A stretch of 34,259 bases of DNA from a virus: IMG/VR virus record IMGVR_UViG_3300045391_000686; one strand, written 5' to 3'. Position 1 is the first letter of the stretch. Every line of letters begins with the position of its first letter. The notes below the pieces were generated by a model. The model ran no database searches and was not told the DNA's origin. It worked only from the letters and a program-made list of their open reading frames with translations. Below, piece after piece: positions 11,495-15,990 of the stretch. The translations under genes were made by a program, and so were the position numbers.

Positions 11495-11791
11495 TTGAAA
11501 AACTTCTTCAAACGTAAACCGAAGCCGCAACCAGCTTCGAAAACTGTGCCGCTGAAAACGAAAGCGTCACCAAAAACCAAAGCAGCGATTGACTTCTTCA
11601 ACGACAAGAAATCAGCCGTCGACATGCTGGAAACAGACCGACGCCGCAAGTTCGTTCATAGTGGGTATACAAAGACGAAAGTCGACCACTTCTTTGAATG
11701 GGTAGAAAAGCAGCCATGGGGCATGTGGGCTGTGTATGCAGTAGCAACCGCATTCGTCGTTGCTGTCGCTTATTGGGGTATAAAGCAATGA
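11495..11791 (+). CDS. Tail-anchored membrane protein with a Lys/Pro-rich N-terminus (98 aa); first gene of the late operon
   Basis: TTG start 7 nt after gagggt. C-terminal TM helix WGMWAVYAVATAFVVAVAYWGI. Confidence 0.55.
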   Translation: MKNFFKRKPKPQPASKTVPLKTKASPKTKAAIDFFNDKKSAVDMLETDRRRKFVHSGYTKTKVDHFFEWVEKQPWGMWAVYAVATAFVVAVAYWGIKQ

Positions 11792-11931
11792 AGCAACGTA
11801 CTTTGAAAGCCGTCGGTTTGGCGCTTGCGCTTGCAGGCGCATTCGGCTTTGGCATGTGGTTCATGTATTTCATCCAGTGGGTTGAAGTGTTCACCAAATT
11901 CATGGAAATGACGGAAAAGGTTTTCAAATGA
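11788..11931 (+). CDS. Small single-pass membrane protein (47 aa)
   Basis: ATGA overlaps on both sides. TM helix AVGLALALAGAFGFGMWFMYFI. Confidence 0.5.
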   Translation: MKQRTLKAVGLALALAGAFGFGMWFMYFIQWVEVFTKFMEMTEKVFK

Positions 11932-12869
11932 GAATCGCATTTTTGGGCAACTTCAACGTGCCGTTCACCAGTGAATCACACTACGCCGCAACACTTGAAA
12001 AGATGGGTCACAAAGTCATTCGTTTGCAAGAACCAATGGTGACCACAGACCGTGTGTATCAAGTCGCTATCGAATGCGACATCTTCTTTTGGGTTCACAC
12101 GCATGGATGGGATTTGAAAGGCAACCGCACGATGACTGAAGTGCTTCGTCGGCTTGAACGCAAGGGCATTCCATCAGTGGCATATCATCTTGATTTGTAC
12201 ATGGGTTTGCGCCGATGGAACGAATACCATGACCACGAATACTTCAAAGTGAAACACTTCTTCACTGTCGACAAATTGATGGCTGATTGGCTGAACGAAA
12301 ACACCAACACGGCTGGTCACTATTTGCCAGCTGGTGTGTTCGAACCAGAATGCTATATTGCCGACAAAGATGACCGCTTCGATTTCGATGTGGTCTTTGT
12401 TGGTTCACGTCGCTACCATCCAGAATGGCAGTACCGACCAAAGCTGATTCAGTTTCTTGAACAGACATATGGCAAGCGATTCGCACACTTCGGCAATGAC
12501 GGAAAGCACGTCGTTCGTGGCGATGAACTGAATCGACTATATGCCAGCGCCAAAGTTGTTGTCGGTGACACGCTTTGCATTGACTTCACATACCCACACT
12601 ATTGGTCTGACAGAATCTATGAAACCACTGGTCGTGGTGGCATGATTATTCATCCATTCATTGAGGGTATAGACACGCAGTTCGAAGCAGGAAAAGAAGT
12701 CATGTTTTACCAATACGGTGACATGCGTGATTTGAAAACCAAGATTGATGAATTGCTGAAAGATACCGAATATCGTGAAAAAATCCGTTTGGCTGGTCAT
12801 GAGCGCACGAAGCGTGACCATACATACACCAGCCGATTGCAAACAATAATTGACACAGTAAAGGGGTGA
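11928..12869 (+). CDS. Glycosyltransferase, CgeB-like (GT-B fold, Glyco_trans_1_2 type; 313 aa)
   Basis: The C-terminal pattern SDRIYETTGRGGMIIHPFIEGIDTQFEAGKEVMFYQYGDMRDLKTKIDELLKDTEYREKIRLAGHERTKRDHTY matches the CgeB-type GT signature. Confidence 0.7.
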   Translation: MRIAFLGNFNVPFTSESHYAATLEKMGHKVIRLQEPMVTTDRVYQVAIECDIFFWVHTHGWDLKGNRTMTEVLRRLERKGIPSVAYHLDLYMGLRRWNEYHDHEYFKVKHFFTVDKLMADWLNENTNTAGHYLPAGVFEPECYIADKDDRFDFDVVFVGSRRYHPEWQYRPKLIQFLEQTYGKRFAHFGNDGKHVVRGDELNRLYASAKVVVGDTLCIDFTYPHYWSDRIYETTGRGGMIIHPFIEGIDTQFEAGKEVMFYQYGDMRDLKTKIDELLKDTEYREKIRLAGHERTKRDHTYTSRLQTIIDTVKG

Positions 12870-12871
12870 CC

Positions 12872-13561: not shown

Positions 13562-13562
13562 A

Positions 13563-14138
13563 ATGAATCGTCAAACACGTCGCAGCGCAGACTTCGACAT
13601 CAAGAAGTACATCAAAGCAAGCAATGAAATTGAGGGCATATACAGCGAAGAAGAAGATGCACAATCGCTTTTGGCATGGGCATATCTTGAACAGCTGGAT
13701 TCGCTTTCGCACGCTGACATCATGCGTGTGCAGAAAATCATCACGCTTCACCAAGAAGACTTGCAGCCAAATCAACGTGGGTACTACCGTGGCATGGCAG
13801 GCAACATGACAAACGTATCTGTCGGTGGTCGGGTTGCACCTGATTATTCACTAGTTGAAGACTTGATGCGCAATTGGCTGATGGACGTGGCACAAATGAC
13901 GCCGCTGATTGGTCACATTCGATTTGAAATGATTCACCCATTCGTCGACGGCAATGGTCGCACTGGTCGCATGTTGTACTGGTATGTGTGCAAGCGCCGT
14001 GGCATCAAACCAACGTACTACAACGCCGACGAAGAAAAGAATCGTCAAGCATACTACCGACTATTTGAACACGAACGTGTCATCAAGCTTTCGAACATGG
14101 GCTGGATTATCAAAGACGACAAGGATTTGCAGTCATGA
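13563..14138 (+). CDS. fic: Fic-domain protein (191 aa) with the canonical AMPylation motif and an N-terminal inhibitory-helix motif
   Basis: HPFVDGNGRTGR fits HxFx(D/E)GNGRxxR. SNEIEG near the N-terminus fits (S/T)xxxE(G/N). RBS gaaagaggtattgaaATG. Its stop overlaps the next ATG. Confidence 0.9.
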   Translation: MNRQTRRSADFDIKKYIKASNEIEGIYSEEEDAQSLLAWAYLEQLDSLSHADIMRVQKIITLHQEDLQPNQRGYYRGMAGNMTNVSVGGRVAPDYSLVEDLMRNWLMDVAQMTPLIGHIRFEMIHPFVDGNGRTGRMLYWYVCKRRGIKPTYYNADEEKNRQAYYRLFEHERVIKLSNMGWIIKDDKDLQS

Positions 14139-15187
14139 AAATCGGGCTTCTTGCATATTCAACCGACACTGGACTTGGCAACCAGACGTTCAATTTCTAC
14201 AAAAACATGAACCCGACGAAAACATTGCTGGTCGACCTATACAAGCACAATGGCATGGAAACGCACCACGAACGCTTTCAAGACGGCGAAGTCATGTTGA
14301 CCCGAAGCTTGCCAGATTGCCAGCACATGGATTGGCTGACGAACGACGTGGACATTGTGTTCATTTGTGAAACGCCGCTGAACTATTGCTTGATGGAAAA
14401 GGCAAAAGCCAAAGGCGTGCCAGTCGTCTTGCAATACAACTATGAATTTCTGGATTATTTGAACCGCAAAGACATTGAAGCGCCAGCAGTATTGGCAGCA
14501 CCAACAATTTGGCACAAAAAAGACGTCGAAGCACTTGGAATCGCACCAGTGCTTGATTTGCCAGTGCCATCAGAGGTATCAGACATCAACTTTCGTGAAA
14601 TAAGTGAATGTCGCAAAATATTTCATATAGCTGGAAAGCAGGCAATTCACGACAGAAACGGCACGATGACATTCATTGAAGCAGCTGTCAAGTGTGGCAA
14701 CCGCTTTTCATACAAAATCTATGCGCAGCAGTTGGACGGTACAACCCGAACGCTGATTCAGAAAGCGCAGCAGAAAATCGACATTGAAGTTGTCTACAAT
14801 ACGCCGAACTATTCAGACATGTACCGTGATGGTGACGTCATGGTCATGCCACGCAAATATGGCGGTCTGTGTTTACCGATGCAAGAAGCTTTGGCGGCTG
14901 GAATTCCAGTCATCATGCCAGACATCGAACCAAACGGCTATCGTTTGCCAAAACAATGGCTGGTCGGTGCAAAGCGTGAACGGTCATTCATGACACGCAC
15001 AATGATTGATATTCATGAAGTCGACCCGAACCACTTGGCATTCAAAATGTGCCAGTTCGGTGACCGTGAATTCATGTCGTGGTCAAACAAAGAAGCAATC
15101 GAAATTGGAAAGGGGCTATCATGGAAACAACTCAAACCGTACTACCAAACAGTGTTTCAGACGATAATCGAATCAACAGCGTCTTGA
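14135..15187 (+). CDS. Glycosyltransferase, GT4/GT1-like (GT-B fold; 350 aa)
   Basis: MKIGLLAYSTDTGLGNQ N-terminus. The C-terminal DVMVMPRKYGGLCLPMQEALAAGIPVIMPD resembles the E-x7-E nucleotide-sugar binding region. Confidence 0.75.
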   Translation: MKIGLLAYSTDTGLGNQTFNFYKNMNPTKTLLVDLYKHNGMETHHERFQDGEVMLTRSLPDCQHMDWLTNDVDIVFICETPLNYCLMEKAKAKGVPVVLQYNYEFLDYLNRKDIEAPAVLAAPTIWHKKDVEALGIAPVLDLPVPSEVSDINFREISECRKIFHIAGKQAIHDRNGTMTFIEAAVKCGNRFSYKIYAQQLDGTTRTLIQKAQQKIDIEVVYNTPNYSDMYRDGDVMVMPRKYGGLCLPMQEALAAGIPVIMPDIEPNGYRLPKQWLVGAKRERSFMTRTMIDIHEVDPNHLAFKMCQFGDREFMSWSNKEAIEIGKGLSWKQLKPYYQTVFQTIIESTAS

Positions 15188-15990
15188 TTGTCATGCCGCT
15201 GACACGCAAGTGGGCGGTAGAAATGCAGGCAAAGCAATTGGCGGCAATGAACCGCTTCACAGACATCAACGTCGAATTGCTGGTGTTCATCGACAATGTT
15301 GACATCACAGAAAGCTTCATCACAGACAAGTTTGAAAAGTATGAAGTGCCATTTGCATACAGGTTCGGCAACAGCAAGCGCCAAGCGCCGCATGAAGTTC
15401 GTTTGTTCTACCGACGTGAACGCATCAAAGAAATGTTGGGCATGGTTCAGCAGACCATTCGTGATATGAAGCGCACGTTCGACATGCTGTTCATGGTCGA
15501 AGATGACACGGTGATTCAAGCTGACGCATTGCAGCGGCTTTTGAGCGATTACAAAGAAGTGACCGACGCAGGCATGAAAGTTGGCTTGATTGAGGGCGTA
15601 CAGGTCGGCAGACACGGCATACGCATGATTGGCGCATGGCGCACTGATGACATCGAAAACCCGACCAAAGTGGCAACACTACCGTTCAACAAGTCATCAT
15701 TCTTCGAAAAGATTGATGGCGGCGGTCTATATTGCTTCATAACGCCGATGCACCTGTTTCTTGAACACACGTTCTATTGGCACGACGAATGCTTCAGCGT
15801 TGACATGACCTATGGTCTGGAACTACGCAAAAAGGGGTACACTAATTTGATTGACTGGACTGTCATCACTGGTCACGCCGACCAGAATGGCAATGTTCTA
15901 TACCCGAATGACAATTGCACCGTTGCTGAATATCACAAAGTTGGCGACGAATGGAAACTTCAAAATAATCGAAAGGGCAAAACATCATGA
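15121..15990 (+). CDS. Glycosyltransferase, GT-A/GT2-like (289 aa)
   Basis: SVLIVMPLTRKW...ELLVFIDNVD resembles the Rossmann-like beta1 strand and the DxD neighbourhood, followed by MVEDDTVIQADALQRLL. RBS ggaaaggggctatcATG. It overlaps the upstream GT by 67 nt in another frame. Confidence 0.6.
   Translation: METTQTVLPNSVSDDNRINSVLIVMPLTRKWAVEMQAKQLAAMNRFTDINVELLVFIDNVDITESFITDKFEKYEVPFAYRFGNSKRQAPHEVRLFYRRERIKEMLGMVQQTIRDMKRTFDMLFMVEDDTVIQADALQRLLSDYKEVTDAGMKVGLIEGVQVGRHGIRMIGAWRTDDIENPTKVATLPFNKSSFFEKIDGGGLYCFITPMHLFLEHTFYWHDECFSVDMTYGLELRKKGYTNLIDWTVITGHADQNGNVLYPNDNCTVAEYHKVGDEWKLQNNRKGKTS

Follow-up and report, generated by a model that had tools for sequence, protein, structure and literature searches.

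A class II Fic enzyme embedded in a predicted glycan-decoration cassette of an uncultivated siphovirus-like phage

The IMG/VR virus record IMGVR_UViG_3300045391_000686, a stretch of 34,259 nucleotides that we call the window, is a siphovirus-like genome of ~34 kb with all genes on the + strand, and between positions 11495 and 15990 it carries an island of seven open reading frames (ORFs) in which a Fic protein lies among glycosyltransferases (GT) and an FkbM-family methyltransferase (MT). We regard the island as a derived copy of a cassette for glycan decoration located in front of the terminase genes, which would build an oligosaccharide on virion proteins, and its Fic as a gene that was gained once, has been kept since and would AMPylate a protein. 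As a whole we give this reading a probability of roughly 0.5. According to this model the cassette enzymes would act late in infection on a cytoplasmic acceptor, most probably on virion proteins, and attach to it a short oligosaccharide with some O-methyl groups, the [ILV]-Ser ends of the major capsid protein (MCP) and of four other head-tail proteins being candidate sites. At the base of one lineage of phages (33-40 kb) a class II Fic was inserted once between the genes for GT47 and GT4; it has been retained since under strong purifying selection, and GT47 was lost later in the subclade of the window. Fic would be made together with the cassette and the late genes and may move AMP (or another nucleoside monophosphate, NMP) onto a hydroxyl of a protein target; candidates for this target are host proteins, the cassette enzymes and virion proteins, and the C-terminal helix of the embedded Fic subfamily may be an adaptation to this target.

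A five-enzyme cassette in front of the terminase genes

Starting from a search of IMG/VR with a profile of GT4, which found 227 relatives, we annotated 82 distinct contigs with purpose-built profiles and observed the recurrent order GT1 - FkbM MT - GT47-like - GT4 - GT-A, usually a short distance before the terminase genes. GT4 is present in 81 of these contigs, followed by GT1 (65), the GT47-like protein, which is ~540 aa long or split in two (57), MT (55) and GT-A (52). The same cassette occurs in genomes of Nocardia, Mycolicibacterium and Mycobacterium, as well as in contigs of metagenome-assembled genomes (MAG) of Saccharibacteria, whose GC content of 0.44-0.46 matches that of the window. 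Close reading of one Nocardia locus showed a prophage with the order GT1-MT-GT47-GT4-...-HNH-TerS-TerL-portal. A Pfam census of the 71 other ORFs inside the cassettes gave 12 class-I methyltransferases, 5 epimerases of the GDP-mannose-dehydratase type and 2 GT2, along with a few HNH and DNA-methylase genes, and no TET or ThyS enzyme was found among the 25 most frequent families. The internal genes are thus mostly of the glycan-tailoring kind, and the cassette appears to be a module for building and tailoring glycans. The GT and MT genes of the window belong to this large, previously undescribed phage cassette of five enzymes, and a literature search for FkbM cassettes in phages returned nothing relevant.

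Deposited phages hold little of it. The window and its island gave no megablast match there, showing that no close relative has been deposited, and TerL of the window is at most ~28% identical to that of any deposited phage. Neither GT4 nor GT-A has a tblastn match in 50,697 deposited phage genomes and GT1 matches nine Streptomyces phages only, with 27-29% identity. To our knowledge, only a few actinophage groups have so far been shown to glycosylate their virions. Since the cassette described here has 227 relatives in contigs of uncultivated viruses and its GT4 and GT-A are unmatched in deposited phages, glycan decoration by phages may extend far beyond what culture collections suggest, which would have a bearing on the immune recognition of therapeutic phages and on the interaction of phages with host surfaces.

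The seven ORFs of the island had been described in an earlier note on the window made from the letters alone, and they are indeed found at the coordinates given there (Table 1) with all of the motifs it quoted (VVDLGANIGAFT, IDVLKIDIEG, HPFVDGNGRTGR, SNEIEG and EDD). Its fold calls also hold, namely two proteins with a single transmembrane (TM) segment, a CgeB-like GT-B, an FkbM MT, a class II Fic, a GT4-like GT-B and a GT-A. GT1 matches PF13524 with E = 8.8e-21 (74.8 bits against a gathering score of 25) and phrog_28745 with E = 1.1e-35, and MT matches PF05050 with E = 3.4e-19 (70 bits against 22.7) and TIGR01444 with 89.8 bits against a cutoff of 37.7, its glycine-rich loop for the binding of S-adenosylmethionine (SAM) being VVDLGANIG. 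For GT4 the Pfam scores lie just above threshold (PF00534, 30.0 bits against 26.4; PF13692, 27.5 against 27); the homologues show the same Pfam matches, and phrog_2170 is found with E = 2.7e-10. No Pfam match was obtained for GT-A, and of 20 homologues only 3 showed a GT2 signal, which was weak (best E = 8e-5). An AlphaFold (AF2) model built from 27 homologues (pLDDT 89.4, pTM 0.87) has 316 matches in the PDB at E <= 0.001, the top 33 of which are all GT-A enzymes, including COLGALT1 (E = 1.3e-10), LH3, STIV A197, GnT-I and SpsA. This predicted structure, by which alone the protein was identified, confirms the GT-A fold. E127-D128-D129, a motif of the DxD type, is invariant in the 27 homologues, and E127 and D129 are invariant in 20 more distant ones. 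PDB sequence searches with GT1 and with the profiles of GT4 and GT-A gave nothing useful, and no TM segment was detected in GT1, GT4 or GT-A. A C-terminal ...KGxxS is kept in GT-A within the clade and could be an acceptor or recognition motif.

Several cassette loci have peculiarities of their own. In the isolate-genome scaffold QQBJ01000015.1 of Mycolicibacterium moriokaense (L115, noted along with L036) the stretch bearing the cassette has a GC content of only 51%, and its cassette coordinates are identical to those of the IMG/VR contig 2856244778_000001; this stretch is likely to be a compositionally foreign element within the assembly. The Saccharibacteria MAG contig RXKC01000010.1 (L097) has four extra ORFs directly 5' of GT1 (2843-5659), several of which read as GT2-like, and the downstream ORF of 1,044 aa in the position of TerL may contain an intein. 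On an 84.8-kb contig (L007) the flanks of the cassette (6561-8000 and 13250-15077) look like a Ro60/TROVE-type protein, an RNA ligase and a polynucleotide kinase; the only confirmed one among its unusual genes is a calcineurin-like phosphoesterase inside the cassette, which matches PF00149. A gene for a SAM synthetase lies directly 5' of GT1 in the Fic-clade phage L137 (1940-2926) and another one is found in an unrelated phage with a short Fic (L012, 667-1632), which would fit a large need for methyl groups.

The embedded Fic protein

Fic matches PF02661 with E = 4.5e-10 and its AF2 model has a pLDDT of 91.8. In a Foldseek comparison of the model with the PDB the best match was FICD (E = 6.9e-7, TM-score 0.67, probability 1.00), and the Fic of C. 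difficile was also among the best; the scores of the protein stay far below the NCBIfam equivalog cutoffs. Its catalytic motif H125-PFVDGNGRTG-R136 is the canonical HxFx(D/E)GNGRxxR, with H, F, D, GNGR and the final R being invariant in 25 homologues and the whole motif being conserved in 120. An inhibitory motif is present as S20-N-E-I-E24-G, which fits (S/T)xxxE(G/N) and in which S20, N21, I23 and E24 are invariant. It is located N-terminal to the Fic core in the same chain, within a predicted helix of residues 13-23, as is typical of class II enzymes, where the inhibitory Glu contacts the second Arg of the catalytic motif and keeps ATP from binding productively; the analogous residues in the C. 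difficile Fic are S31 and E35 (PDB description, 4x2d). A flap hairpin is found at about residues 86-91 and a C-terminal helix with LSNMGW is specific for the clade. Other members of the family are built differently: P0003, P0006, P0023 and others (265-276 aa) are long-form Fics with a further C-terminal extension of 45-80 aa that is absent from the window Fic, and L137 (8722-9042) and L138 (6783-7136) carry a separate ORF of 106-117 aa between Fic and GT4 that is absent from the window.

The canonical HxFx(D/E)GNGR motif stands for NMP transfer, that is AMPylation; in Doc-type Fic kinases a Lys replaces the Gly (HxFx(D/N)(A/G)NKR), and the phosphocholine transferase AnkX has an extra CMP-binding domain that inverts the binding of CDP-choline (PMC4177925). 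The window Fic reads GNGR without a Lys, and it consists of a single Fic domain without any extra domain. An AnkX-like transfer of a phospho-linked moiety, as the earlier note had suggested, is therefore unlikely given the canonical AMPylating motif, the predicted gating by glutamate and the single domain of 191 aa, and the idea is disfavoured. Judged from its motifs, the best-supported chemistry for Fic would be a glutamate-gated AMPylation of a protein hydroxyl. As a minimal, presumably auto-inhibited Fic under strong constraint it offers a tractable model for the long-open question of what the class II Fics of bacteria and phages modify, and the set of candidate targets is narrow, a handful of co-expressed phage proteins of which five share a C-terminal motif.

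Fic occurs in 9 of the 82 annotated contigs. Its absence from the other 73 and from all 41 cassette loci in genomes rules out that it is a general component of the cassette. A tree of GT4 places the 12 tips with Fic in one nested clade, with L137, L139 and L023 at its base carrying GT47 as well as Fic, and the derived members, among them the window, have lost GT47. In L030 (= L159; MCP 62% identical), the closest sister that has no Fic, GT47 and GT4 are separated by a clean spacer of 100 nt without a Fic remnant. This empty site and the single nested clade point to a single gain of Fic. Compared with the closest relative, the dN/dS of Fic (0.088) is the lowest of the cassette, with GT-A at 0.109, GT1, MT and GT4 at 0.15-0.27 and TerL at 0.119. 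This value and the deep retention in the clade rule out a random, recently acquired gene in decay.

The Fic homologues in the databases fall into long forms (~90 clusters) and short forms of 150-170 aa. The long forms possess a C-terminal helix with a conserved (V/I)xxLSNxxW, whereas the short forms do not, and a tree reconstructed from the shared catalytic core alone also separates the two cleanly, with a bootstrap of 52/100. Wherever the context of a long-form Fic was readable, the gene was embedded immediately 5' of GT4 or one small ORF away from it (at least 14 contigs, down to 49% identity). The short forms, with a core identity of ~50%, were located among early or accessory genes without a GT in all six cases that were examined, their neighbours being HNH, NinG, WhiB, YopX, helicase and chaperonin genes, and several of them are near terminase genes. 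One phage with a short form, L141, has Fic directly before TerS/TerL, and a few kb 5' of it there are a Mom-like gene and a weak match to Stealth_CR2, a sugar-phosphate transferase family (2931-3629).

This arrangement bears on the view of the earlier note that Fic is wired into the sugar genes, which holds in part. Its embedding 5' of GT4 in at least 14 contigs and its lowest dN/dS speak for it; against it, Fic is no general partner of the cassette, and the whole genome is syntenic across the Fic clade, which could explain the position. It had been set down beforehand that a Fic behaving as an independently gained or lost moron unlinked to the GTs would count against such a link. Half of this was found: Fic was gained independently of the cassette, but has since never been lost or moved.

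A more direct link would be that Fic works in the glycosylation pathway, gating GT4 or GT-A by AMPylation or modifying the same Ser/Thr acceptors on the virion, with nucleotidylation and glycosylation being coupled in this way. Fic enzymes and O-glycosyltransferases both act on protein hydroxyls. Besides its constant place directly 5' of GT4, often with an overlap of stop and start, the subfamily has its own C-terminal helix and the lowest dN/dS, it stays although GT47 was lost and extra methyltransferases and small ORFs were gained and lost around it, and the cassette interior otherwise encodes mostly glycan-tailoring enzymes. We nevertheless consider this explanation unlikely, as most viral contigs (73 of 82) and every genome locus do with a Fic-less cassette, none of the six short forms at ~50% identity is linked to a GT and synteny of the whole genome can account for the constant position. 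Furthermore, Fic arrived in L023 beside two unrelated small genes, one of them like an early gene of the window, and the [ILV]-Ser ends of the virion proteins persist in the Fic-less sister L159.

It is also conceivable, even if somewhat doubtful, that Fic is an unrelated accessory gene in the region before the terminase genes, serving host take-over, anti-defence or as an injected effector, and that it AMPylates a host chaperone, topoisomerase or defence factor. FICD, which AMPylates BiP, is together with class II Fics from C. difficile and Bacteroides among the best structural matches, and the short-form homologues lie among early and accessory genes, several near the terminase. HNH and DNA-methylase genes inside cassettes indicate that the site tolerates insertions, and the known Fic targets are host regulatory proteins (PMC4177925). 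Such an accessory gene would leave unexplained why the subfamily has a C-terminal helix of its own and why Fic stays in the cassette in at least 14 contigs with changing neighbours, and the explanation overlaps with the one we favour, in which the Fic target may be a host protein as well.

Candidate acceptors of the glycan

Operons of GTs and O-methyltransferases modify the capsid and the tail tube in cluster O mycobacteriophages, according to the account of Freeman 2023 given in PMC11600133. By analogy with these, virion proteins are the most likely target of the cassette.

A glycosylation of phage DNA as base hypermodification appears highly improbable. Phage GT-A and GT-B enzymes can hypermodify DNA, and clusters of this kind are common in IMG/VR contigs (bioRxiv 10.1101/2023.12.21.572611). 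The cassette adjoins the terminase genes, and a few cassettes have genes of DNA modification nearby, a C5 methyltransferase in L023 and L143 and ORFs that read as QueE-like radical-SAM and QueD-like in L008 and L010. DNA-modifying GTs are, however, typically found beside C5-MT/5mYOX or ThyS (bioRxiv 10.1101/2023.12.21.572611), and scans of the window with Pfam, PHROGs and NCBIfam detected no hydroxymethylase, TET/JBP, ThyS or DpdA, none of which is among the 25 top families of the census either. The earlier note had likewise seen no gene for base hydroxymethylation, and these scans bear it out. FkbM sugar O-methyltransferases in combination with four different GTs suggest an oligosaccharide on a protein or glycan acceptor instead. 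In L008 (6722-8747) and L010 (7719-11442), two distant contigs, the ORFs after the cassette read as genes of the 7-deazaguanine (queuosine-type) pathway and may also include a DpdA. The DNA methyltransferase genes of L023 (6813-7931) and L143 (10677-12473), which belong to the Fic clade, lie between GT-A and TerS, where the window has none; both contigs have the C5 methylase and L143 additionally has an N6/N4 methylase.

Clues to the host come from the lysis region. In the endolysin (1441-2865) an amidase domain forms the N-terminal part, and the C-terminal part has two repeats that resemble wall-binding repeats. Among deposited phages it is by far best matched by the amidase of the TM7 (Saccharibacteria) phage DolZOral124_53_65 (87% coverage, E = 2e-38), with lysins of Arthrobacter, Rothia and Propionibacterium phages coming next. 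Together with the occurrence of the cassette in genomes of Actinobacteria and Saccharibacteria, these sequence matches point to a host from one of these two groups. The endolysin is preceded by a protein of 267 aa (594-1397), on whose other side lie two small holin-like ORFs (157-610); it is a protein with an N-terminal TM segment and a low-complexity C-terminal region rich in Ser, Thr, Asn and Pro, which has no family match.

A host that is probably Gram-positive-like, as judged from the wall-binding appearance of these repeats and from the TM7 phage and actinophage matches, would suit another idea, in which the cassette modifies glycans of the host envelope (wall teichoic acid, arabinogalactan or S-layer) to serve release or the exclusion of superinfection, with the two single-TM proteins, which are coupled to GT1 and kept in the clade, as membrane tether. 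We regard this as very unlikely. In the window and in the most frequent census families we saw no polyprenyl-phosphate priming transferase, flippase, polymerase or GT-C, the GTs themselves are devoid of TM segments, the TM pair is largely absent from cassettes without Fic, and a late-operon site beside the terminase, found also in the Nocardia prophage, is atypical for genes of lysogenic conversion.

For the favoured virion proteins a candidate acceptor can be named. Five proteins of the window end with [ILV]-Ser (Table 1), and these are the only ones, corresponding to 5 of the 11 head-tail genes and 5 of all 55 genes. Such an end has a background frequency of 2.3% among 1,300 other ORFs of cassette loci, compared with 2.0% for control loci, and the chance of finding at least 5 in 11 from these frequencies is roughly 3e-6 by simple arithmetic. 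The ends are kept across the clade and in the Fic-less sister although identity between the proteins has dropped to 35-60% and the residues before the ends vary freely, and four different codons are used for the terminal Ser (TCC, TCG, AGC and twice TCA). A phage of Oceanotoga that has a homologous MCP and no cassette carries [ILV]-Ser on 1 of its 18 head-tail proteins. We see in the motif a possible acceptor or recognition signal, which at the level of sequence is a lead and not yet evidence.

The embedded long-form Fic might even be a dedicated part of the virion glycan pathway, for example by nucleotidylating the [ILV]-Ser ends or by switching GT4 or GT-A. We think that this is rather improbable; if true, it would functionally link Fic-mediated AMPylation to protein glycosylation for the first time, and no earlier case of AMPylation would be on record for a virus particle or its assembly machinery.

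Several points weigh against a virion-decorating cassette with a recruited Fic. As GT4 and GT-A are unmatched in deposited phages, the link to the proven virion-glycosylating systems of mycobacteriophages is one of analogy only, and the assignment of GT4 as a GT4-like GT-B is itself marginal, with Pfam scores near threshold and no PDB sequence match. Late timing of the cassette is inferred from its position only, since in the scan of the region promoter-like and terminator-like sites were not more numerous than in shuffled sequence, which is the level of chance. Synteny of the whole genome means that the constant position of Fic alone is no proof of functional coupling. The MCP of the cassette-less Oceanotoga phage also ends with Ser (...SAS), which weakens the terminal Ser of the MCP as a trait specific for the cassette, and [ILV]-Ser is missing in the cassette-bearing Nocardia prophage, in a Saccharibacteria-associated contig and in L048 and L053, all of which have different capsids; the motif tracks one capsid family. 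A genome-wide excess of Ser-terminal proteins (12 of 55) was discarded as a lead, as controls show it too with 13.8% (Fisher p = 0.52) and related loci repeat the same orthologues, and only the narrower [ILV]-Ser pattern of the virion proteins was retained.

Gene order and comparison with known systems

The genes of the island are tightly packed. ATGA overlaps are found at the TM1/TM2, TM2/GT1 and Fic/GT4 junctions, gaps of 2 nt and 1 nt separate GT1 from MT and MT from Fic, respectively, and the GT4/GT-A overlap of 67 nt has counterparts of 61 nt (L138), 58 nt (L139) and 64 nt (L001) in relatives. The seven coupled ORFs of the earlier note are thus real, but the coupling does not end at 15990, as GT-A overlaps the next ORF (15987-16223) by ATGA, which in turn is overlapped by another one (16207-16437). 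With these two small ORFs coupled to GT-A the operon continues toward TerS/TerL, and the 3' limit of the island is set by function and not by transcription. On its 5' side the island is preceded by a gap of 180 nt upstream of TM1. TM2 shows 64-81% identity in L001-L004, and a pair of small TM ORFs lies directly 5' of GT1 in 9 of 10 loci of the Fic clade, while any TM ORF is found at this place in 14 of 63 other loci.

Table 1. Coordinates of the island genes, their neighbours and the candidate acceptor proteins in the window.
Feature	Position	Strand	Remarks
Promoter-like site TTGCCA-17-TAGAAT	11425..11453	+	10/12 matches; in the 180-nt gap before TM1; plausible by position only
TM1, 98 aa, C-terminal hydrophobic segment	11495..11791	+	KD19 1.77, residues 78-96
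TM2, 47 aa, single TM segment, ATGA-coupled on both sides	11788..11931	+	KD19 1.83, residues 11-29
GT1, CgeB-like GT-B, core cassette gene	11928..12869	+	PF13524, phrog_28745; 65/82 contigs
MT, FkbM-family SAM methyltransferase, core cassette gene	12872..13561	+	PF05050, TIGR01444; 55/82 contigs
Fic, compact class II, long subfamily, 191 aa	13563..14138	+	PF02661; structure model; dN/dS 0.088
GT4, GT4-like GT-B (marginal assignment), most conserved cassette gene	14135..15187	+	PF00534, phrog_2170; 227 IMG/VR relatives
GT-A, GT-A-fold glycosyltransferase, E127-D128-D129	15121..15990	+	structure model; 52/82 contigs; 67-nt overlap with GT4
Two small ORFs coupled to GT-A	15987..16437 (15987-16223; 16207-16437)	+	ORF 16207-16437 89% identical in L001
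TerS and TerL, downstream neighbours typical of the cassette	17231..19286	+	TerL within the flank in 34/82 contigs
MCP, ends ...IGTGTVS, candidate acceptor	22541..23809	+	phrog_10 E = 3.9e-31; end conserved in 17/17 relatives whose alignment reaches it
Ig-domain virion protein, ends ...IS, candidate acceptor	23846..24367	+	phrog_2175; IS in 16/16, preceding residues variable
Head-tail protein gp25190, ends ...G[VI]S, candidate acceptor	25190..25516	+	12/12
Tail-module protein gp25901, ends ...[LI]S, candidate acceptor	25901..26305	+	11/11, preceding residues variable
Protein after the tape measure, gp29356, ends ...A[IV]S, candidate acceptor	29356..29724	+	6/7

The virion-glycosylation operons of mycobacteriophages (cluster O and Che8-type), as far as PMC11600133 and PMC13313380 describe them, share with the island the tandem GTs and the O-methyltransferase, and their hosts are Actinobacteria or close to them. 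In contrast, there is no detectable sequence homology, with GT4 and GT-A being unmatched and GT1 matching Streptomyces phages only, and the enzyme set of the window (CgeB-like, GT47-like, GT-A) is another one and is placed before the terminase; no Fic is reported for such operons. The Streptomyces phages Lizz, Dryad, Yara and others possess, where their late operon ends, a CgeB-like GT homologous to GT1 (27-29% identity) with a methyltransferase behind it. These have one GT only, and its site is after the lysis genes and not before the terminase. In Lizz the neighbours of the GT are annotated as a nucleotidyltransferase, in place of Fic and by annotation only, and as a methyltransferase. From the DNA-hypermodifying GT clusters (C5-MT/5mYOX or ThyS) the island differs in that the defining precursor-forming enzymes were not detected in the window.

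With the class II Fics FICD/HYPE, C. difficile Fic CD0569, Shewanella SoFic and Bacteroides BT_2513 the window Fic shares the fold, HPFxDGNGRxxR and the N-terminal (S/T)xxxE(G/N), the TM-scores of its model being 0.62-0.68 to FICD, CdFic and BT_2513 and 0.52-0.55 to SoFic. Unlike them it is smaller (191 aa), phage-encoded, only ~20% identical and free of TPR or wHTH domains, and it has the C-terminal helix specific for its subfamily. The short-form phage Fics (150-170 aa) belong to the same compact family with ~50% core identity and identical motifs, but have neither the LSNxxW helix nor a glycosyltransferase nearby, and the best viral structural match is the Fic of Fusobacterium phage Fnu1 with a TM-score of 0.71. 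The earlier note knew of no precedent for a Fic inside a GT operon; our full-text literature searches found none, and a search on phage Fic and glycosyltransferase returned nothing relevant. Compared with all of these systems, the island reads as a GT/MT operon for decoration in a phage, into which a class II Fic has been taken up for good, and in this pairing it stands without a described precedent.

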